Of a stretch of DNA of 64,000 nt, positions 4,179-49,802 are shown piece by piece (position 1 is the stretch's first letter; each line of letters begins with the position of its first letter). The notes under the pieces are model-generated. The model made no database searches, was not told where the DNA came from, and was given only the letters and a program-made list of their open reading frames with translations. Position numbers and translations under genes: made by a program. Source of the DNA: Candidatus Dojkabacteria bacterium (GTDB lineage Bacteria; Patescibacteriota; Dojkabacteria; SC72; JAHDCA01); contig CP129478.1 of assembly GCA_030583845.1 (NCBI GenBank), positions 971,686 through 1,035,685 on the forward strand. The letters are read 5' to 3'.

Positions 4179-4255
4179 TGGTCGGGGAAACAGGACTTGA
4201 ACCTGCGACCTCAGCTACCCGAAAGCTGCGCTCTAGCCATCTGAGCTACTCCCGA
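4179..4255 (-). tRNA. tRNA-Pro (anticodon CGG) with an acceptor-stem irregularity; possibly degenerate or a homopolymer error
   Basis: Hand-folded cloverleaf. D-arm TAGCTCAGATGGCTAGAGC, anticodon stem/loop CAGCT-TTCGGGT-AGCTG and T-arm GCAGGTTCAAGTCCTGT. The 5' acceptor is TCGGGAG versus 3' TTCCCCG, giving a C:C mismatch at 2:71, probably one G missing relative to its paralog at 11471-11547. Confidence 0.6.
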
Positions 4256-7181: not shown

Positions 7182-8678
7182 ATGGATCAGTCACAAAAGA
7201 ATGTGTTAGTCCAGGAGAGAGTTGTGTCGCCTCTATCATTGTTGGTGAATCAGCTTAAATCACCGCTGGTTTTTGTGCTCATATTTGCCGCACTGATAAC
7301 CACGGCTCTTGCTGAATATGTCGACACACTATTTATCTTGGTAGCGATTGCGATAAACAGTGCACTCGGTTTCTATCAAGAATACAAGGCTGAAAATACT
7401 TTGCAACAGCTTAAAAAACTGATCAATCCTAAAGCAGTTATTGTGCGCAACGGTAAGAAGTTCACGATAGAGTTGGCCGAGGTGATGGTAGGTGATATAG
7501 CTGAGCTTACCATAGAGCATCAGATTCCTGCCGATGGCGAGTTAGTAGAAGCGATGGGACTGACCGTGAATGAGGCTATATTGACCGGTGAATCCGTGCC
7601 AGTGCACAAATCACACGGCGATATGATCTATGCAGGGACAAGACTGCTGACTGGGCATGGATATATGAAAGTGAAATCGATTGGAGGCAATACTAGCATC
7701 GGGAAAATCGGAGCCAGTGTATCGTCAATTAGCGATACAAAGACACCTTTGCAGCATCAGCTCGGGAAGCTTGCGAGATATCTCTCGATTATTGCCGCAC
7801 TTTGTGCCGCACTGCTTTTCCTTGTCGGCTTGCTATATGGGTATGAGCTCAGCGAGATATCGACTACTGCCGTAGCCGTAGCTGTAGCATCAATCCCGGA
7901 GGGACTAGTTGTCACGCTAACAGTAATTTTAGCGGTTGGGATGCAGAAGGTGTCCAAGCAGCAGGCTATCGTGAGAAAGCTTCTCGCAGCCGAGACGTTA
8001 GGCTCTGTTACAACAGTATGCGTAGATAAGACCGGTACAGTAACAGAGGGGGTCTTAAACGTGGTACAAGAGGATTTTATAGACAATGATCTTGCGTACA
8101 GAAGCATTAGATTGTCAGAGAATGGCTCTGATCCTCTTGAAATTGCCATGAGGCAGTGGTTGGAAAAGAAACATAGCTCACAGGTTGTATCGGGGTCATG
8201 GGAAGTGAGCGAGAAAGTGGTCGATGGCATACCATTTAACAGCAAGCAAAAGTACACTGCACTACTTGGTGAGTCGTCTGGAGGGAAAATTCTATATCTA
8301 TTTGGAGCTCCCGAGGTGCTATTGGATAAATCTACTATCGATAAAAATAGCCGTGAGTTGTGGGAGGCACGTATTGCTGAGTATGCCTCCAAAGGGAAGA
8401 AAGTTATTGGTTTCGCCCACAAAGAGTACAAAGAGAATAAAAAGTTGAGCAAGAAAGATATAAGTCAGCTTGAGTGGAACGGTCTGCTCGCCCTTGATGA
8501 CCCGATCAGGCAAGGAGTGATTGAGTCTATAAGGGAGTGTCAGTCTGCTGGGATTAATTTCAAGATGATTACTGGAGATTATCTTGAGACTGGAATCGCG
8601 GTTATGAAACAGCTTGGCTTGCTTGATGAGAGCGATCATGCTCGCAGATGGCACCGCGATAACAGGTGTAGAGCTTAA
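7182..8678 (+). CDS. P-type cation-transporting ATPase, N-terminal fragment (phosphorylation domain); interrupted gene
   Basis: Phosphorylation motif 'CVDKTGTVTEG' and TM segments. It ends in out-of-frame residues after 'LGLLDESDHA'. Confidence 0.7.
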   Translation: MDQSQKNVLVQERVVSPLSLLVNQLKSPLVFVLIFAALITTALAEYVDTLFILVAIAINSALGFYQEYKAENTLQQLKKLINPKAVIVRNGKKFTIELAEVMVGDIAELTIEHQIPADGELVEAMGLTVNEAILTGESVPVHKSHGDMIYAGTRLLTGHGYMKVKSIGGNTSIGKIGASVSSISDTKTPLQHQLGKLARYLSIIAALCAALLFLVGLLYGYELSEISTTAVAVAVASIPEGLVVTLTVILAVGMQKVSKQQAIVRKLLAAETLGSVTTVCVDKTGTVTEGVLNVVQEDFIDNDLAYRSIRLSENGSDPLEIAMRQWLEKKHSSQVVSGSWEVSEKVVDGIPFNSKQKYTALLGESSGGKILYLFGAPEVLLDKSTIDKNSRELWEARIAEYASKGKKVIGFAHKEYKENKKLSKKDISQLEWNGLLALDDPIRQGVIESIRECQSAGINFKMITGDYLETGIAVMKQLGLLDESDHARRWHRDNRCRA

Positions 8679-9612
8679 AAAGCTCTCCGATGATGAGCTC
8701 CGGTCTCGTGTGGGGAAGATCATACTTTTTGCTAGAACTGACCCGATACAGAAATTGCGAATAGTAGAAGCTCTACGAGCGAATGGTGAGGTAATAGCTA
8801 TGACAGGCGATGGGGTAAACGACTCCCCAGCACTTAAATCTGCGGATATTGGGATCGTCGTGAAAGATGCGTCAGATATATCAAAAGAGGTGGCAGATAT
8901 GGTGCTCCTGGATTCAAACTTTGGGACAATCGTCAGGGCGGTCGAGGAGGGTCGTGCCATGTTCGATAATATTAAGAAAACCGTCATGTATCTGCTTATA
9001 GGAAGCTTTAGTGAGCTGATTCTTGTCATGGGAGCTATATTGCTACAGCTACCACTTCCGATTACTGCTCTGCAGATATTGTGGGTGAACCTAGTCGAAG
9101 ACGCACTGCCTGCATTATCTTTGGCATTTGAGCCAAAGGAGGGCGATCTATTAAAACAGCCACCGAGGAGCAAGAATGAGCATATCTTGGATCGCCAGAT
9201 GTTAAAGATTATTGCACTATTTGTATTAATCGCGGATGCTATGATCTTTTTAATTTTCTACTACCTACATAGAGAAAGTGTGAGCGTTGAGCTAATGCGA
9301 ACGGTAGTATTTGTAGGTGTAGGAATCAACTCTCTTTTCTATATTTTCGCCTGCAAATCCTTGCGTCACACAATTTTCAGCTACAATCCTTTCTCAAACA
9401 GGTTTATGGTTTTGTCAGTGTTAATTGGGATTGGCGCATTGATTGTAGGTGTACAGATGCCGATATTTAATTTGGTATTAGGCACAGTGCCGCTTTCGTT
9501 GGGTTATTGGACTTCCCTGTTTGGCCTTGGGCTGCTTAACTTGCTTTTGTTCGAGGTGATAAAGGTTTGGGTAAATCGTGGGAACCGTTCGACAGAAATG
9601 CAGTTGAGATAA
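8614..9612 (+). CDS. P-type cation-transporting ATPase, C-terminal fragment after a +1 frameshift
   Basis: 'MTGDGVNDSPALKSADIGI' (hinge motif GDGxNDxPAL) and C-terminal TM helices. It overlaps the upstream fragment over 8614-8678 in a different frame. Confidence 0.7.
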   Translation: MACLMRAIMLADGTAITGVELKKLSDDELRSRVGKIILFARTDPIQKLRIVEALRANGEVIAMTGDGVNDSPALKSADIGIVVKDASDISKEVADMVLLDSNFGTIVRAVEEGRAMFDNIKKTVMYLLIGSFSELILVMGAILLQLPLPITALQILWVNLVEDALPALSLAFEPKEGDLLKQPPRSKNEHILDRQMLKIIALFVLIADAMIFLIFYYLHRESVSVELMRTVVFVGVGINSLFYIFACKSLRHTIFSYNPFSNRFMVLSVLIGIGALIVGVQMPIFNLVLGTVPLSLGYWTSLFGLGLLNLLLFEVIKVWVNRGNRSTEMQLR

Positions 9613-11470: not shown

Positions 11471-11547
11471 TGGTCGGGGAGACAGGACTCGAACCTGCGA
11501 CCTCTACTTCCCAAAAGTAGCGTTCTAGCCATCTGAACTACTCCCCG
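11471..11547 (-). tRNA. tRNA-Pro (anticodon TGG)
   Basis: Perfect 7-bp acceptor CGGGGAG/CTCCCCG, D-arm TAGTTCAGATGGCTAGAAC, anticodon loop TTTGGGA, T-arm GCAGGTTCGAGTCCTGT, discriminator A and CCA. Confidence 0.85.
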
Positions 11548-17838: not shown

Positions 17839-18408
17839 ATGACGAAAGAGCGTGAGATTGAATTAATACTTAAATCAAAAGAAAATATAGAGTACTTCCG
17901 TGAGGTATATGAATTCTACTTGCCTAAAATATTTGGCTATTGTATCAACCGACTTCCGAATAGAAACATTGCAGAAGATATCACCAGCAAGGTGTTCCAT
18001 GATGCTGTTAAGCAGATAGATAATTACCATCCAAGAGATGGCATCCGTTTTGGGGCATGGTTGTATAGGATTGCGCACAATAAGATTGTTGACCATATCC
18101 GCAAAGAGTCGAAGCGGAATCATACTGAGCTTAATGAGCTAATTGGTTCAGAAGAGCCGAACCATGAGAGAGAGGTAGTAGTATCTGAAGCTCAGATACG
18201 TGTTGCGAATGTTATGGCTAAGCTTGCTCCTCGCTATCAGCAAGTCTTGTCCTTACGATTTTACTCGGAACTAGATATTTCAGAGATAGCGGAAGTTATG
18301 AAACTCAAAGAGAATAATGTCTCAGTGCTACTTCATAGGGCGTCAAAGGCCTTTAAGCAGCAATTTGAGAAGGAATACTCAGAGAGTGAAATATCTGAAT
18401 TATTATAA
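17839..18408 (+). CDS. ECF-type sigma-70 family RNA polymerase sigma factor
   Basis: Region 2 'LYRIAHNKIVDHIRK' and region 4 HTH 'LDISEIAEVMKLKENNVSVLLHRASKAF'. Confidence 0.85.
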   Translation: MTKEREIELILKSKENIEYFREVYEFYLPKIFGYCINRLPNRNIAEDITSKVFHDAVKQIDNYHPRDGIRFGAWLYRIAHNKIVDHIRKESKRNHTELNELIGSEEPNHEREVVVSEAQIRVANVMAKLAPRYQQVLSLRFYSELDISEIAEVMKLKENNVSVLLHRASKAFKQQFEKEYSESEISELL

Positions 18409-18424
18409 CGATATATAACAAAGT

Positions 18425-20161
18425 ATGAAAAATCGCAACAGCAAAACGAAATTTTCAGTAGAGAGCTTTATCCTTCAGGCCAGAATTAGCCCCTCAAAAT
18501 ATGACCAGATAACCGATCAGAAATTCTCAGACATGCTTTGGGCGAAGATTTCCCAAAAAGCAGCGAAGCTTCTAGATGGCATTTCAGTAATGTCATCCTT
18601 TCTTCCTTCGATATACCCGGCTAACAGCCGGTTATTCTATTCTGGTATTGTTATTGCAGTAGCGCTGGTAGGATTGACAATATTTGCTGTAAGCAAGCCA
18701 GGAATGATTATGACACAAAGCGTGAAGAAACAGTCATACACAGGCACGATCTCATACTTATATGGTCAAACTGGGACAGAAGCTGACAGTAAACTGCTCT
18801 ATTCTATCTCTGATGGAGCAACAATAAAGGATGGCGACTCAATTCAGACCGAAGCAAATAGCAGAGCTTCGATACTATTTGAAAGTGGAGACATTGTGCG
18901 GCTCGACAACAATACTTCGTTAAAAATTAACAAGGCAAATAGCGATACAATAAGTCTAGACCTTTCGCACGGTCAGCTATATGTAAGGGCAGCGGATGAC
19001 AGAACATATATTGAAGTAAATACTGAGTATGGCAAGTATAAGAGTGAAAAGGCAGTTTATACAGTGGTGTCTAATGAGAATGAAGACGGAGTATTAGTGC
19101 TTAAGGACGAAGTAGAGGCAGAAACAAAGGCGAATAAAGTAAAAGTTGAAGAAGTAGATGAGGGTTACACATATTTCATTATGAATAGTCCAAGCTCAAG
19201 ATATTCTCTTGGACTTGGTATCCTTGAACAGTCTTTCATAACTGGGTCTGACTTTATTTCATGGAATGCCTCACAAGATAGCAAAGTCTTGGGTGGAAGC
19301 ACAAAGATTAGTGAGATCGCTTATCTAGAGAGCCCTCAGATCGCCATGAAGACACCTTATAACAGCACTGTTGAAGGCGGTACAGCTGTAATTGAAGGAC
19401 AAACCTCACCAAAAAGCACTGTAGTTATTAATGGAGAAGAGAGCAAGGTGCAGCAGAATGGAGAATTCGAGAAGAAGGTGCAGGTCGAGAATGGTAGTAA
19501 TGTGATCGAAATTGTAGCAACAGACAGCGAAGGCAATAGCGCTATCGAGACAGTTGAGGTAGTTAGTGTTGTGCCACAGGTGCCAGCGATTAAGACTAAT
19601 GCATGGGCCGAGGGTGAAGGTATGAGAGTTGCCTGGAGCATTATAGAAGGTAGCGGAGATGGTTTTGATTTCTGGAAGCTACTTTATTCTAGAGGCTCGA
19701 ATCTAGTTTTGGGTAGTGCAATTACCAGAGATGTACAGAAGACTAAAGGTGAGTATTTCATACCAATTGCAGACGGGCAGACATACAATGTAAGACTTTG
19801 CGCCTATATTAAGGCTGAAAATAGATGCTTTGCATACAGCAATATTGTGTCTGTGGCATCTCCGACCCCAATGTTTACTTCGTCACCATTTAGTGTCGAG
19901 GTCGAGGCAAACAAAGTACTTTGGGAGTATGACGGTGTTACAGAAGAAGGCTTCTTAGTCGCCTGGAGCACAGAAGAGATATCTGATAAGCTTCCTCGAT
20001 CACAGTTTAGAGTAAAGCATGTAAAGTCTAAATCAGAAGGTAAGGCCAGGCTTGAGGCTTTCCAAGGAGATGGTAGCTACAATGTGAGCATATGTGTAAA
20101 GGATGGGAAAACTTGTAGTGGTGTCCCTGAGAAGATTGATGTGGTACTTCGTGATTATTGA
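18425..20161 (+). CDS. Putative anti-sigma factor: single TM, FecR-like domain, then Ig/FN3-like beta-rich ectodomain
   Basis: It lies immediately downstream of the ECF sigma gene. It has one TM at about aa 75-95, and 'DGDSIQTEANSRASILFESGDIVRLDNNTSLKIN' is FecR-like. Confidence 0.55.
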   Translation: MKNRNSKTKFSVESFILQARISPSKYDQITDQKFSDMLWAKISQKAAKLLDGISVMSSFLPSIYPANSRLFYSGIVIAVALVGLTIFAVSKPGMIMTQSVKKQSYTGTISYLYGQTGTEADSKLLYSISDGATIKDGDSIQTEANSRASILFESGDIVRLDNNTSLKINKANSDTISLDLSHGQLYVRAADDRTYIEVNTEYGKYKSEKAVYTVVSNENEDGVLVLKDEVEAETKANKVKVEEVDEGYTYFIMNSPSSRYSLGLGILEQSFITGSDFISWNASQDSKVLGGSTKISEIAYLESPQIAMKTPYNSTVEGGTAVIEGQTSPKSTVVINGEESKVQQNGEFEKKVQVENGSNVIEIVATDSEGNSAIETVEVVSVVPQVPAIKTNAWAEGEGMRVAWSIIEGSGDGFDFWKLLYSRGSNLVLGSAITRDVQKTKGEYFIPIADGQTYNVRLCAYIKAENRCFAYSNIVSVASPTPMFTSSPFSVEVEANKVLWEYDGVTEEGFLVAWSTEEISDKLPRSQFRVKHVKSKSEGKARLEAFQGDGSYNVSICVKDGKTCSGVPEKIDVVLRDY

Positions 20162-20178
20162 GCATAAAACTCATTTTC

Positions 20179-20209
20179 TCGACAGGGTGCAGGTTTGTAG
20201 GCTATAATC
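20179..20209 (+). promoter_or_regulatory. Sigma-70-like promoter (TCGACA-N18-TATAAT) driving the lysS leader
   Basis: Seen directly: tcgaca...ggctataat. Confidence 0.35.
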
Positions 20210-20214
20210 GATCA

Positions 20215-20514
20215 GCATTGACGAGGAACTTCTGGTTGTACGATGCTTACAGTGACTCCGGTAAAGTGCGAACGGAGAACATCAAACCCGAAGCAAGACC
20301 TCCGAGCTTAGGAAGAAATCTATCTTATGATCGCAGTCAGCGATTATAGCGAATAAATAGAGAGTAGAACCTGCAGTAGAGCAAGCTGTGAATTGCTAGG
20401 CTAGCAATAGCCAACAAGGCTTAGGTAGAGATATCTGGGCAAAGCAAAGTGGTACCGCGGTTGAACGCCTTTGCAACAAGTTAATTTTGACTTGTTGCAA
20501 AGGCGTTTTGTTTT
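20215..20514 (+). promoter_or_regulatory. Probable T-box riboswitch leader (tRNA-Lys responsive) upstream of lysS
   Basis: T-box core 'AAAGUGGUACCGCGG' lies immediately 5' of an intrinsic terminator. An antiterminator can be drawn as gcaaag-[UGGUACC bulge]-gcgGUUGAAcgc-ctttgc, which competes with the terminator 5' arm. A candidate specifier hairpin, ccgGUAAAGUGCGAAcgg, contains AAA/AAG. The UGGU bulge matches discriminator A73 of tRNA-Lys. Confidence 0.6.
20464..20514 (+). terminator. Rho-independent terminator (18-bp stem, 8-nt loop, T-tract); the T-box expression-platform terminator
   Basis: aacgcctttgcaacaagt-taattttg-acttgttgcaaaggcgtt followed by ttgtttt. Confidence 0.7.
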
Positions 20515-20556: not shown

Positions 20557-22548
20557 ATGAACGAAACAAAATTTGGAAGCGACCTTATAGGTCAAAGAGC
20601 TCAAAGAATAGCAAAGGTTAAGGAGCTGACGCAGCTGGGCATCAACCCCTACCCTGGGAAGGGAGAGCGTACAAAATACGCAAGTGAGATTATTGTGCAG
20701 TATGCACAGCTAGAAGGCAAAAAGGTTGTGGTAAATGGTCGTGTAATGACATGGAGGCAGCATGGGGATATCCAATTTATTGATCTACAAGATCAAACAG
20801 GGCGTATACAGCTTTACATTCGTAATGAGGAGCTAGGCGCAACCAATACGGCTGAGGGAATACTTGGCTTAGATAAGCTTCATCTACTTGATATCGGTGA
20901 CCATATCGAGGCACGTGGTACCGTAACTAAGACCAAAACTGGTCAGGAATCAGTACTTGTAACCAGTATCAAGCTTCTATCAAAGAGCATACGACCGCTT
21001 CCAAATAAGTGGCAAGGAGTTACCGACAAAGAGACTAGGTATCGAAGAAGATATCTTGATATGACGATGAATCCAGAGGTTCGCGAGATGTTTGTACGAA
21101 GAGGTGTATTCTGGAACGCTGTGCGAGACTTTATGGAGTCTACAGGCTTCACGGAGGTTAATATTCCAGTGCTGGAGCATACCACAGGAGGTGCAGATGC
21201 AAGGCCATTTGAGACATATTACGATGCGCTTGCCGAGAATTTCTACCTCAGGATATCCCACGAGCTCCCGCTTAAGCGGCTTCTAGGTGGCGGGTTTGAA
21301 AAAGTGTATGACCTCGGACCAAGATTTAGAAATGAAGGTTTTAGCGAAGAGCACCTGCCGGAGCATGTAGCCATGGAGTGGTACTGGGCTTATGCTGACT
21401 CACGCGATGGGATGAAGCTTACAGAAGAGATGTTCAAATATGTACTTGAAAAAGTTTATGGCACATTGCAGTTTGAGATCCGTGGTAACGCAGTCGATCT
21501 TAGCGGTCAATGGGAAGAGATAGACTTCTCGACAGTTGTTTGGGATAAGTTTGGTGTCAGCGTATTTGATGACACAGTTGAAAAGCTTGTAGATGTATAC
21601 GTGAAAAATGGAGGTGAGGCAGATCTCAACATGAATCGAAGCAGGGTGGCAGACGGGTTGTGGAAGCTGATTCGGAAAGATATTGTCGGGCCGGTCTTTT
21701 TGACTGGAGTTCCGAAATTCCTATCTCCGCTATCAAAAGCCAATGTGGATGATCCACGCAAGGCTGACAGATTCCATCCTATAATCCTTGGCAGTGAGAT
21801 GGCGAATGCATTTTCTGAGCTAAATGACCCGCAAGAGCAGCTTGATAGGTTCCTTGAGCAGCAAGATATGAGAGATTCTGGCGACGAAGAGGCACATATG
21901 CTTGATATAGATTTCGTAGAGATGCTCGAATATGGTATGCCGCCTGCAGTAGGGTTTGGGATGTCTGAGCGTGTATTCTGGGCATTTGAGGCTGTTACAG
22001 CCCGTGAAGGAGTGCCATTCCCGCCGATGAAGAGATTCTTTGACAATTTCTCGAAAGAGATTTATGGCGATCGAGTAGACTTTAGTAAGCTTACTTCACA
22101 TAAGAAGCCTGCATATGCAGCATCAAGCACGCCTGCATCGAACTCTAAATTTGTCATCGTGCTCAACAAAGATGTTGAAGGCTGGAGGCTTACAAATACT
22201 GTAGGACATCTGACAGCCTATCTTGGCGGCAAAGTTGGCGAGGCAGTGGTAGGTCGGGAGAGCTTCACGCTGGCAGATGGAGATAAAATATCTGCAAATT
22301 CACAGTTTCCTGTGATTACACTCGCAGCAAATCCAGGCCAGATGGTTAATTTCGCTCGGAAAGTACAAGAAACTGGATTACCATACCTTATATATGTTGA
22401 CGAGATGATTCAGTTTAACCTAGATGATCCTCTCCAAGAGGATCTCAAGGATAAAAAGCTGGATGATCTACTGATTTGGGGTATTGGTGTCTTTGGGGCA
22501 GCAGATATAATCGACCCGCTTACAAAGAAATTCAGTATGTGGGGCTAA
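20557..22548 (+). CDS. lysS: Lysyl-tRNA synthetase (class II) with an extra C-terminal domain of about 150 aa (Pth2/DUF2000-like, tentative)
   Basis: N-terminal OB anticodon-binding domain plus class II motifs ('FRNEG', 'GLGIDR'-like 'GFGMSERV'). Length 663 aa versus about 500 typical; the tail 'FVIVLNKDVEGWRLTNTVGHLTAYLGG' resembles the Pth2 fold signature. Confidence 0.85.
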   Translation: MNETKFGSDLIGQRAQRIAKVKELTQLGINPYPGKGERTKYASEIIVQYAQLEGKKVVVNGRVMTWRQHGDIQFIDLQDQTGRIQLYIRNEELGATNTAEGILGLDKLHLLDIGDHIEARGTVTKTKTGQESVLVTSIKLLSKSIRPLPNKWQGVTDKETRYRRRYLDMTMNPEVREMFVRRGVFWNAVRDFMESTGFTEVNIPVLEHTTGGADARPFETYYDALAENFYLRISHELPLKRLLGGGFEKVYDLGPRFRNEGFSEEHLPEHVAMEWYWAYADSRDGMKLTEEMFKYVLEKVYGTLQFEIRGNAVDLSGQWEEIDFSTVVWDKFGVSVFDDTVEKLVDVYVKNGGEADLNMNRSRVADGLWKLIRKDIVGPVFLTGVPKFLSPLSKANVDDPRKADRFHPIILGSEMANAFSELNDPQEQLDRFLEQQDMRDSGDEEAHMLDIDFVEMLEYGMPPAVGFGMSERVFWAFEAVTAREGVPFPPMKRFFDNFSKEIYGDRVDFSKLTSHKKPAYAASSTPASNSKFVIVLNKDVEGWRLTNTVGHLTAYLGGKVGEAVVGRESFTLADGDKISANSQFPVITLAANPGQMVNFARKVQETGLPYLIYVDEMIQFNLDDPLQEDLKDKKLDDLLIWGIGVFGAADIIDPLTKKFSMWG

Positions 22549-23738
22549 GCCATCGGTGCAGCTTGGATTGGCATTGCATCTGTTTGAGCGGCGTCCGGTA
22601 CAGAGTTTGAGGTTGCATCTGGGGCTGTAGTTGGTGCAGCTGTGAAGTCTTTGTTGCGGACCTCTTCGACACTCGGCAATACCAGCCGTGCATACTGATC
22701 AACGTTGCTTTCATCGATTGTAACAGATGTAGTCTTGCCCAACACGATCTGCTTTGTTACATAACGCGCCAATTTTTTCATGCTCTGTTCAATTCGTCTC
22801 ACACCTTGGTCGGTACCAAATGTGCTGATAAGCTTTGGCCAAGCGGTTTGTGAGATCTGTAGCTCCTCGGGCTTTAGCTCTGCATACTCCAAGACCTTAG
22901 GGAATAAATATTTCTGAGCGATGACGACTTTCTCATCGACTGTATAGTCTGGAAACTCTATAAACTCTATCCTATCTAGCAATTCGCGAGAGATAGTCTT
23001 AAAACGGTTTGCAGTCGCTATAAACAGTATCTTTGAAAGGTCTACTGGATAATCAATATAAATATCTCGAAAAGACTTGTTTTGTTGCGGATCCATTATC
23101 TCGAGCATTATCGCCATAAAGTCTTGTCTACTGCTCTCGCTTCCGCTTACCTTATCGAACTCATCAAGGAGGATCACTGGATTCATGCAGCCCGACTTCA
23201 CCATTGAGCGCACAATTTGGCCAGGAGTCCCTGTCAGGTCAGCAGCAGGCGAGCCGCGTAATTCAGTTGGAGAGCCCAATCCACCAAGTGAAATCCTGTA
23301 AAATGGTCGTCCTAGAGCAGCAGCTATAGCTTTGGCGAGGCTTGTCTTGCCCGCACCCTGCACTCCAACAAATGCTAGAACTGGCGCTGAATACTCTCTG
23401 TCTGCTGCAGCATTTTTGCGATTCAATACCGCAAGATACTCAAGCACTACCTCTTTAACGTTCTCGCTACCGTAATGCATGCTATCAATTACCTGCTTGG
23501 CCTTTACGAGGTCAAGATTGTCTTGAACATATCTGCCCCAAGGCACGCTCATGCACCAGTCAATATATTTGGCGATAGCTTCATACTCTCCAGCTGACTG
23601 ACCCTGCCTAGCCATTCGTCTGAGGCGTTTCAGCTTCATCTCAATCTGTTCTCTAAGTCCTTGAGGAAGTGTGGCTTGCTCTAGCTTACTTATTAGGTAA
23701 AGCACTTCGGCCAATTGTGTTGTCGACTCTTCTTGCAT
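22545..23738 (-). CDS. Lon-like AAA+ ATPase lacking the Lon protease (S16) domain
   Basis: The 'YIDWCMSVPWG', 'GVQGAGKTSLAKAIAAALGRPFYRISLGG', Walker B 'LLDEFDK' and 'LLDRIEFIEFPDYTVDEKVVIAQKYL' motifs track Lon residues closely. The protein ends in an Ala/Pro/Thr-rich tail with no Ser-Lys dyad domain. Confidence 0.7.
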   Translation of the reverse strand: MQEESTTQLAEVLYLISKLEQATLPQGLREQIEMKLKRLRRMARQGQSAGEYEAIAKYIDWCMSVPWGRYVQDNLDLVKAKQVIDSMHYGSENVKEVVLEYLAVLNRKNAAADREYSAPVLAFVGVQGAGKTSLAKAIAAALGRPFYRISLGGLGSPTELRGSPAADLTGTPGQIVRSMVKSGCMNPVILLDEFDKVSGSESSRQDFMAIMLEIMDPQQNKSFRDIYIDYPVDLSKILFIATANRFKTISRELLDRIEFIEFPDYTVDEKVVIAQKYLFPKVLEYAELKPEELQISQTAWPKLISTFGTDQGVRRIEQSMKKLARYVTKQIVLGKTTSVTIDESNVDQYARLVLPSVEEVRNKDFTAAPTTAPDATSNSVPDAAQTDAMPIQAAPMA

Positions 23739-31752: not shown

Positions 31753-31793
31753 GAGTCTGGTACAAATAAATTCAATTTGGGCATTTAATAACT

Positions 31794-31881
31794 GGTGCTG
31801 AGGAGAGGACTCGAACCTCCACAGGATTTAACTCCCACTAGTACCTGAAACTAGCGCGTCTGCCAATTCCGCCACCCCAGC
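31794..31881 (-). tRNA. tRNA-Leu (anticodon CAG), class II with long variable arm
   Basis: Acceptor GCTGGGG/CCTCAGC, anticodon loop TTCAGGT, long variable arm TGGGAGTTAAATCCTGTG, T-arm GGAGGTTCGAGTCCTCT and CCA. Confidence 0.85.
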
Positions 31882-42944: not shown

Positions 42945-43022
42945 GGTGGATGTAGCTCAATTGGTTAGAGCATCGGTTTGTGGAACCGAGGGTTGTGGGT
43001 TCAAGCCCCATCTTCCACCCCA
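42945..43022 (+). tRNA. tRNA-His (anticodon GTG) with genomically encoded G-1
   Basis: G-1 + GTGGATG acceptor, anticodon loop TTGTGGA, T-arm GTGGGTTCAAGCCCCAT, discriminator C73 pairing with G-1, and CCA. Confidence 0.85.
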
Positions 43023-48230: not shown

Positions 48231-49802
48231 TTATAAAAAGTACTGACTCATATATTGCCTCAATGAATCATCAACTATATATACATATGTTCCGTTAATA
48301 CCACGAGTGAGTAGAGTTGTATATATGTTCTTTATGTATGCTTCTAATTCTGCTGGATCAGAAATTGCTCTCTTTCCATTGAAGTCGAGGTATTTTGATT
48401 TATCAACAACCACTTTATGTTTGTTTTTGTCGTAAGAAATCTCGGGTCCAATTATTACACCTGCATAATTCAGATCATAGCCCTGAATCGTGTGAATACA
48501 CCCAATTTCATTTACTGCATTAGGTGAATTAACCCAATCTTCTGTGACACTATTCCACTTAAGCCGTGTGCCGTCAATTTCAATATCATAATCGATCTCA
48601 TTGTTTCCTTTGGTCTTCCATTCCCAGGCATATCCTGCGAGTATCCTTGAAAGACTGTAATCATAATCCTTTTCTTTGATTGCCAAGACCATATCTTTTA
48701 TATTATTAAAGAGTTTGAATTCATAGGTATAGAATTTATTTGGATACGGATTGGAGCAGTTTAAAATATCCCTTATATATTCTATATAGTCCATTCCTCC
48801 ATTGACTCTCATCTGAGAAGTTAATTTGTGGTTTACAAAGGAAATATTGTCTAATGCGTTATATTTAATGTCAGCTGGCTTTACTGACTGATACTTGTCA
48901 TAAAATAGCACTTGATGCTTTGATGATTGCAGGATCCAGTCTAATTGTGTAGCAGAGTCTTTCTCAAGTCCTAAAGATGCAGAGATCTTATCGAAATCTC
49001 TATAGTTTGTTAGGTTTACCCGTCTTTGTAGCCGATGGGCTTCGTCAACAATCAAGATATCGTACTTTTTCCTTACTACATCATTAGGACCAATTACCAT
49101 ACCTGGCGTTAGACCCTTAATATTTCTAAAGACGCGCTTAAGTGTTTTACGAAGCGATGTCATTGGAATAACAAGACCTATCTCTAAGTCTTTAGACCAT
49201 TTCTTCATGCTTAATGCTTTTACTAGATAGGTGGCTACAATTGTCTTCCCCGTTCCTGGCTCACCGGATACAAGATGGGGAATTCTTTCCCCAAATTTAA
49301 TACTGGACATTATCTTATCAACGACGTCTAGCTGATCTTGCGAGAGGGCTTTGTACGGAGAATATTTAAACAAATCACTATTTTGAATTTGAACAAGATC
49401 ATTATCGACTACTTTTAACTTTTGAAGTTCTTTCCAAATAGTCTCAAATTTAGCTTGATAACGCTCTCTATCGTAATAATTTGACTCCTGTATTCCAAAA
49501 TTAGCATTTTGTAATAGGTATTTACCATCGCCGGACATATATCTAATCAAGGAGGATTCTATGTCAAGCGTAGCAGACTTGTTATATTCATCATCTGCAA
49601 TTATATACATTGAGTTTAGCTTAGCCCTGTCTGCCTTCTCGAAATGCTGGCTAGCCCGTCTATATGCTGCTGTAGTTTCTCCAATATAGGCTTCCTTACC
49701 GTCTTCAAGAATATACACTATTGGCCAATTCTCACCGTATCGATAATCCCTTACATTTGTAAATTGATCCTTCCTGTAATTAAATTTCTTGATCTCGTAC
49801 AT
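48231..49802 (-). CDS. GIY-YIG nuclease domain fused to a DUF2075-type P-loop ATPase/helicase-like domain
   Basis: N-terminal 'PIVYILEDGKEAYIGETT...YRRASQH' (GIY-YIG). Walker A 'GEPGTGKT' and Walker B 'ILIVDEAHRLQ', with overall shape like DUF2075 proteins. Confidence 0.65.
   Translation of the reverse strand: MYEIKKFNYRKDQFTNVRDYRYGENWPIVYILEDGKEAYIGETTAAYRRASQHFEKADRAKLNSMYIIADDEYNKSATLDIESSLIRYMSGDGKYLLQNANFGIQESNYYDRERYQAKFETIWKELQKLKVVDNDLVQIQNSDLFKYSPYKALSQDQLDVVDKIMSSIKFGERIPHLVSGEPGTGKTIVATYLVKALSMKKWSKDLEIGLVIPMTSLRKTLKRVFRNIKGLTPGMVIGPNDVVRKKYDILIVDEAHRLQRRVNLTNYRDFDKISASLGLEKDSATQLDWILQSSKHQVLFYDKYQSVKPADIKYNALDNISFVNHKLTSQMRVNGGMDYIEYIRDILNCSNPYPNKFYTYEFKLFNNIKDMVLAIKEKDYDYSLSRILAGYAWEWKTKGNNEIDYDIEIDGTRLKWNSVTEDWVNSPNAVNEIGCIHTIQGYDLNYAGVIIGPEISYDKNKHKVVVDKSKYLDFNGKRAISDPAELEAYIKNIYTTLLTRGINGTYVYIVDDSLRQYMSQYFL

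Follow-up and report, generated by a model that had tools for sequence, protein, structure and literature searches.

The 64-kb window (the whole stretch of DNA analyzed here) derives from Candidatus Dojkabacteria, a CPR/Patescibacteria host with a genome of roughly 1 Mb. A complete transcriptional T-box leader occupies positions 20209-20514 of the forward strand, with a promoter on its 5′ side and lysS on its 3′ side, all on one strand. The lysS gene (20557-22548, +) encodes a class II lysyl-tRNA synthetase (LysRS) in which an OB anticodon-binding domain and a catalytic core are followed by a DUF2000 / Pth2-like domain at the C-terminus. Two genes directly precede the T-box, one for an ECF-type sigma factor (17839-18408, +) and one for a FecR-domain protein that also has Ig-like and glucodextranase-B-like domains (18425-20161, +), a pair that is syntenic in three of the related loci described below (L161, L162, and L163). 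Downstream, a convergent gene (22545-23738, -) encodes an AAA+ ATPase with a Lon-lid domain; its 4-nt overlap with lysS takes in the stop codon and leaves no space in which the two genes could have a terminator of their own.

A near-consensus, sigma-70-type promoter-like site was found at 20179-20208 (+), comprising a -35 box (TCGACA), an 18-nt spacer and a -10 box (TATAAT; 20203-20208), with 11 of 12 consensus matches and a likely start site at about 20215. The span proposed for the leader in the first-pass annotation, 20215-20514, fits a transcript that begins near this start site and runs through the last U of the U-tract. A TATAAT-like -10 box was present at the equivalent position in 12 of 13 related leaders, and among these 13 none was detected in L163. 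The stop codon of the upstream FecR-like gene is at 20161, with the leader's terminator about 300 nt further on and the promoter between them.

The 3′ part of the leader contains the T-box core, AAAGUGGUACCGCGG (20446-20460), and two structures that share sequence. The antiterminator (20444-20474, +) consists of helix A1 (GCAAAG, 20444-20449, paired with A1′ CUUUGC, 20469-20474; 6 bp), the 7-nt bulge UGGUACC (20450-20456, +) and helix A2 (GCG, 20457-20459, paired with CGC, 20466-20468, +), which is closed by the loop GUUGAA and has G20457-C20468 as its terminal pair. The intrinsic terminator (20463-20514, +) has a 21-bp stem (20463-20483 with 20488-20508), the loop AUUU and a U-tract, UUUUGUUUU (20506-20514, +). 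Its 5′ arm includes both A2′ and A1′, i.e., the 3′ half of the antiterminator, so that the two structures are mutually exclusive. The first-pass annotation had placed the core directly before a strong intrinsic terminator, had drawn the antiterminator with the terminator's 5′ arm and had put UGGU in a 7-nt bulge, and all three points agree with the structures found. The antiterminator has a predicted energy of -7.7 kcal/mol and the terminator one of -32.1 kcal/mol, an imbalance that would be usual for a switch that depends on tRNA to stay on. On both strands, the terminator hairpin (20464-20507) also drew sub-threshold matches to eukaryotic miRNA-precursor families (E down to 5e-5 locally), which are artefacts of a long, perfect, near-palindromic hairpin.

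Stem I (20214-20308, +) was delimited from the Rfam alignment, the MFE fold and a covarying closing helix. Its basal helix (AGC/GCU) is followed by a GA motif, recognized from its sequence pattern, with UGA on the 5′ strand and GA on the 3′ strand next to the basal and closing helices, both of which covary; most relatives read UGAUGA...UGAGC at this motif. The closing helix (GAGG, 20223-20226, with CCUC, 20299-20302, +) covaries among the leaders. Farther up lie an AG bulge (AGUGA, 20251-20255, +) and, as placed by the Rfam alignment and the fold, a 5-bp distal helix (CUCCG, 20256-20260, with CGGAG, 20273-20277, +) that is capped by the 12-nt loop GUAAAGUGCGAA. In the Rfam alignment, the bulge and distal loop have high posterior probabilities; as the putative platform for the tRNA elbow, they are assigned from sequence and secondary structure. 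The specifier loop is compact (2 x 5 nt), with AA on its 5′ side and C-AAG-A on its 3′ side, where the lysine codon AAG (20295-20297, +) is followed by an unpaired purine, A20298, and then by the CCUC strand of the closing helix.

Stem II (20309-20373, +) has a basal helix (UAGG/CCUG) and an apical helix (UCUAU/AUAGA), with the strands of an S-turn, AAGAAA (20313-20318, +) and GAGUAGAA (20362-20369, +), in between. At its apex, the window's leader carries an inserted 9-bp hairpin of its own (20326-20348, +), formed by UAUGAUCGC (20326-20334) and GCGAUUAUA (20340-20348). Next, as read from the sequence, is a stem IIA/B pseudoknot (20374-20397, +), with CAG (20374-20376) paired to CUG (20386-20388) as stem IIA and loop AGCAA (20380-20384) paired with UUGCU (20393-20397) as stem IIB (+). 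In the equivalents found in relatives, the sequence differs and the complementarity is kept, according to a reading by eye without a formal pair count. An extra hairpin, GGCU-AGCAAU-AGCC (20399-20412, +), separates the pseudoknot from stem III; of the 13 long-form leaders, 8 carry it, and it makes up most of the insertion seen in the Rfam alignment. Stem III (20419-20440, +) is a 9-bp helix with a GAGA tetraloop, flanked by AACAAG on its 5′ side and AAA on its 3′ side. The 3′ AA flank occurs in all 13 long-form leaders. On the 5′ side, ACAAG fits four of the five positions of RRRxG, and AAAAG, GAAAG, and GAGAG of relatives fit fully, as judged by eye.

Searching with the Rfam T-box model (RF00230) under permissive filters produced a match at 20209-20475 that covers the whole model (1-219) and scores 39.8 bits, below the curated gathering score of 93. 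The corresponding E values were 2e-7 for a 521-nt region and 2.4e-5 for both strands of the 64-kb window, in which this leader was the single T-box match; at the gathering threshold, Rfam reported four tRNAs and no T-box in the whole window. Visible reasons for the low score are some 57 inserted nt in the alignment to the model and a poor fit of both stem II and the specifier loop. When ten relatives were rescanned, eight matched RF00230 over its full length with 44.9-81.5 bits, again all below 93, and L162 and L001 were undetected at E ≤ 0.01. The window's leader thus has the lowest score among the nine leaders that match at this E value. A low covariance score together with a stem I that could not be folded was what the first-pass annotation had named as evidence against a T-box; the score is indeed sub-threshold, but stem I folds, and does so with covarying helices.

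To follow the leader beyond the window, 172 loci around related lysS genes were collected. The core AAGCARAGUGGUACCGYG was found about 90 nt upstream of lysS in L008, L161-L167, L169, and L172, and variants of it precede lysS in L001, L002, and L003, making 14 leaders including that of the window. The 13 relatives with the element are Dojkabacteria-like genomes, and in each it lies upstream of the orthologous lysS. A regex scan, followed by a scan with a clade covariance model of the T-box core and terminator (R1), was run over the window and the 172 loci (about 1.06 Mb) and revealed no lysS T-boxes beyond these 14 leaders. Two weak R1 matches in L121 were rejected as an ordinary terminator that lacks UGGNACC. 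The R1 scan detected nothing in the remaining loci, about 150 in number, most of which carry the label Saccharibacteria or Saccharimonadales. The leader is also absent from three closer relatives, L168, L170, and L171; in L168 and L171, the gaps span only about 60 nt.

Several leaders depart from the form seen in the window. In L162 (2253-2304), whose LysRS is 73% identical, stem I is truncated and has a short hairpin in place of both AG bulge and distal loop; AAG with its A, stem II with the S-turn, the pseudoknot and the terminator are kept. The leader of L003 (2282-2483) is a short form without the stem II domain, and in those of L001 (1737-1984) and L002 (2361-2395) no stem III is obvious. 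The L001 T-box is followed by an ORF of 157 aa (2000-2473; starting MEIERKW) and then by lysS, an arrangement that suggests a two-gene operon. A Pfam search with this 157-aa ORF returned no match, and a guess that it encodes a CYTH protein was dropped for want of support.

Comparison of the leaders showed that their helices are maintained by compensatory change. A UGGUACC bulge between A1 and A2, with a mutually exclusive terminator and U-tract, is present in all 14. In a pair count for the antiterminator (alignment A4), the helices were 97.6% paired and six of nine pairs were changed on both sides; on four of five measures, none of 500 shuffles came up to the real alignment, and slid controls were 35-57% paired. 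The terminator was 86% paired, and both partners had changed in 11 of its 16 pairs. RNAalifold recovered the basal, closing and next helices of stem I from 11 sequences, with compensatory changes at all 11 predicted pairs, and the closing helix alone occurs as CCUC/GAGG, UCUC/GAGA, CCCU/AGGG, CCUU/AAGG, UCCU/GGGA, CCUA/UAGG, and CAUC/GAUG. The distal helix was missed by RNAalifold because MAFFT misaligns the variable upper part of stem I; single-sequence folds were used there, and in these the AG bulge and distal hairpin were visible in most leaders. Neither the folds nor the RNAalifold alignment showed a canonical stem I S-turn (AGUA/GAA) to be conserved in the clade. In stem II (13 leaders), all seven pairs predicted by RNAalifold had changes on both sides and the S-turn strands were invariant. 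The architecture, conservation, covariation and genomic setting of the leader are established by these observations. The earlier proposal of a T-box leader upstream of lysS is accordingly upheld by the full-length RF00230 match, the order of promoter, leader and lysS, the relatives and the covariation, and stem I, the modelling of which had been suggested as a check, folds with the sequence pattern of a GA motif, a specifier loop, an AG bulge and a distal loop, and covaries in its basal and closing helices as well as in the lower helices.

All 14 leaders have G-C as the last pair of helix A2. At this position a G.U wobble is conserved in T-boxes and serves as the primary steric sensor (PMC7583486). 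We considered the G-C pair as a new type of sensor and rejected this, as it is a known minority variant (PMC11404447); citing Li et al. (2019), that paper reports that G-C can still act as a steric filter, though less often. Because G-C is a documented variant that is reported to work (PMC11404447), the lack of G.U leaves the leader's membership among the T-boxes intact.

Taking the evidence as a whole, we are highly confident that lysS is controlled by a tRNA-Lys-specific T-box riboswitch of class I (transcription-attenuating) at 20209-20514. The likeliest alternative, itself improbable, is that the window's leader is a decayed relic that no longer switches and either acts only as a constitutive attenuator or is non-functional. 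Such decay could be read from its 39.8 bits, against 44.9-81.5 bits in the eight matching relatives, from the 33-nt insertion in stem II and the extra hairpin, and from the very stable terminator (-32 kcal/mol). However, every critical element is intact in the window, namely the GA motif by its sequence pattern, AAG with its A, the AG bulge and distal loop, the S-turn strands, the pseudoknot, stem III with its AA, UGGUACC, A1, and A2. The insertions are confined to the stem II apex and the linker, L165 has a larger insertion at the same site in stem II, and the stem II region is known to range from about 10 to 200 nt in length (PMC7583486). Furthermore, a constitutive terminator of -32 kcal/mol before what is probably the sole LysRS gene would likely be lethal.

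A functional T-box that reads another tRNA is less probable still. In each of the 14 leaders, AAG and its unpaired A immediately adjoin the closing helix, whereas the two bases preceding AAG take seven different values. Invariance is confined to frame 0 (AAG, Lys) and frame +1 (AGA, Arg), which leaves arginine as a candidate; in the window's sequence alone, GCA (Ala) and CAA (Gln) are also possible frames. In frame +1, however, the codon is followed by a pyrimidine that takes part in the closing helix, so that frame 0 is the sole frame with the required unpaired purine after the codon. Frames -1 and -2 vary, and frame -1 is a stop codon (UAA) in 7 of 14 leaders. The specifier is accordingly assigned as lysine AAG, because an unpaired purine follows it, the specifier positions of the Rfam model align to it and the regulated enzyme is LysRS in every case. 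This narrows the AAA/AAG displayed in the candidate hairpin of the first-pass annotation to AAG. The third alternative, that there is no riboswitch and that the FecR-like gene's terminator merely lies beside a chance UGGUACC, takes its plausibility from a hairpin that alone would pass for a generic terminator and even draws spurious miRNA-family matches, but it is effectively refuted by the distance from the upstream stop codon with a promoter intervening, by an RF00230 match that spans the entire model and by conservation of the whole leader, with covariation, beside lysS even where the upstream gene is a different one (FecR-like, SufBD, CDP-alcohol phosphatidyltransferase or divergent ORFs).

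With tRNA-Lys as the ligand, the UGGU of the bulge would pair with the ACCA 3′ end of the tRNA, and bacterial tRNA-Lys normally has A73 as its discriminator, which fits UGGU. No tRNA-Lys gene was found in the 64-kb window or in 96 related loci. The four tRNA genes of the window are those for Pro-CGG (4179-4255, -), Pro-UGG (11471-11547, -), Leu-CAG (31793-31881, -), and His-GUG (42946-43022, +); all encode the 3′ CCA, and the discriminator is A in the two tRNA-Pro and the tRNA-Leu and C in the tRNA-His.

For the T-box riboswitch of lysS, we infer from the mechanism established for T-boxes, of which a standard account is available (PMC7583486), that tRNA is bound, its charging is sensed and readthrough follows. 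Transcription would begin just past the TATAAT box at 20203-20208. When tRNA-Lys is uncharged, its 3′ ACCA would pair with UGGU of the bulge (20450-20453) and stack on helix A1, and this pairing would stabilize the weak antiterminator (20444-20474), allowing polymerase to read through into lysS. Charged tRNA would be sterically rejected by its amino acid; the more stable terminator (20463-20508) with its U-tract would then form, and transcription would end at the U-tract, about 45 nt 5′ of the lysS start codon. The switch would thus most likely turn on lysS when tRNA-Lys is uncharged.

In the order of its elements, the Dojkabacteria leader is the same as RF00230 class I T-boxes that have stem II, e.g., that of Bacillus subtilis tyrS (PMC7583486). 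Common to both are the GA/K-turn motif (in our leader a putative one, from its sequence pattern), the specifier loop with its codon and purine, the AG bulge and distal loop, an S-turn in stem II, the IIA/B pseudoknot, stem III with AA, the UGGNACC bulge, a competing terminator with U-tract and a place before an aminoacyl-tRNA synthetase gene. It differs from them in its sub-threshold score, in a compact specifier loop without a conserved stem I S-turn, in the insertion hairpin at the stem II apex and the hairpin before stem III, in the terminal G-C of A2, and in its host, a CPR bacterium and not one of the Firmicutes. The terminal G-C is shared with the glyQS T-boxes of Streptococcus pneumoniae and Streptococcus pyogenes (PMC11404447); those, however, are glycine T-boxes without canonical stem II or IIA/B, whereas the Dojkabacteria lysine clade has stem II and the G-C is fixed in 14 of 14. 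The truncated stem I combined with stem II in L162, not in the window, resembles that of actinobacterial ileS T-boxes (PMC7583486), in which the stem II domain compensates for the truncation (PMC7583486), but L162 keeps a transcription terminator and the ileS forms act on translation.

Control of LysRS by a T-box had been described as uncommon in the first-pass annotation, and this is confirmed by Foy et al. (2010; PMC2916919), with examples in only four species among 891 genomes (Bacillus cereus, Bacillus thuringiensis, Clostridium beijerinckii, and Symbiobacterium thermophilum; PMC2916919). Two lineages of lysine T-box have been described, a Bacillus/Clostridium type and a Symbiobacterium type (PMC2916919). 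Our leader is like these in that a LysRS gene is controlled and the specifier is a lysine codon, and the regulated LysRS is of class II, as in C. beijerinckii and S. thermophilum (PMC2916919). The accompanying hint at a Firmicutes host was misleading, as annotation of the exact LysRS protein identifies Candidatus Dojkabacteria, of the CPR lineage. According to TBDB, more than 85% of T-boxes in two-codon families have an A-ending codon and lysine is among the rarest specificities (PMC7778990); the Dojkabacteria leader, in contrast, uses AAG.

The DUF2000 domain of the regulated LysRS comprises residues 531-662 (22147-22545, +), and its AlphaFold model is a confident one, with a pLDDT of 86.8. 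The best structural match of this model was Atu0240 (2GAX; E 1.7e-11), followed by Pth2-type peptidyl-tRNA hydrolases (1XTY, 2ZV3, 1RLK, 1Q7S (Bit1), and 1WN2) with a probability of 1.00 and target-normalized TM scores of 0.61-0.69. These model-based matches suggest that the domain may be a tRNA-ester hydrolase-like or tRNA-binding module fused to LysRS. The LysRS-DUF2000 fusion is common among Patescibacteria LysRS, and the LysRS of other relatives carry HD (PF01966), tRNA_bind (PF01588) or B3_4 (PF03483) instead. A literature search, incomplete in its coverage, returned no paper mentioning DUF2000.

Elsewhere in the window, a P-type cation ATPase is apparently split into two overlapping ORFs, of which the first (7182-8678, +) contains E1-E2_ATPase and Hydrolase domains and the second (8614-9612, +) Hydrolase and Cation_ATPase_C domains; the split could reflect a frameshift, a pseudogene or an assembly error. 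An ORF at 48231-49802 (-) has a strong match to the Schlafen group 3 helicase domain (E 1.2e-61) and is possibly defence-related.

Among the 19 ORFs of at least 330 aa in the 64-kb window, there was no second LysRS or other synthetase; the cell may have no LysRS besides the regulated one. We tentatively propose, as something possible rather than probable, that tRNA sensing by T-boxes is native to part of the CPR, in the form of a Dojkabacteria-centred clade with a divergent, sub-threshold lysine T-box on what is probably the sole LysRS. If so, this would break the earlier rule that a T-box-regulated LysRS is always accompanied by an unregulated second copy, and it would make the charging of tRNA-Lys a direct nutritional checkpoint in an organism that is likely host-dependent for amino acids. 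It would also be in favour of T-boxes having arisen early in the Terrabacteria lineage to which the CPR belong.

The mechanism itself is textbook, and the peculiarities of the clade (a compact specifier loop, the stem II insertion, an extra hairpin and a G-C sensor pair) are modest; what is new or little known is the host group, a clade invisible to standard annotation, and possibly the control of a sole LysRS. Within the incomplete literature coverage of our search, no paper was found that links T-boxes to CPR, Patescibacteria or Saccharibacteria, and gene regulation in Patescibacteria has been described as virtually unknown (PMC11665869). The leader provides a concrete, testable regulatory element in this group and a third setting for the rare lysine T-box, with a minority AAG specifier. 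Since the Rfam threshold misses a whole T-box clade, censuses of riboswitches in the CPR are likely undercounts. The leader also hints that lysine, or the charging of tRNA-Lys, may be a monitored nutrient signal in these reduced genomes.
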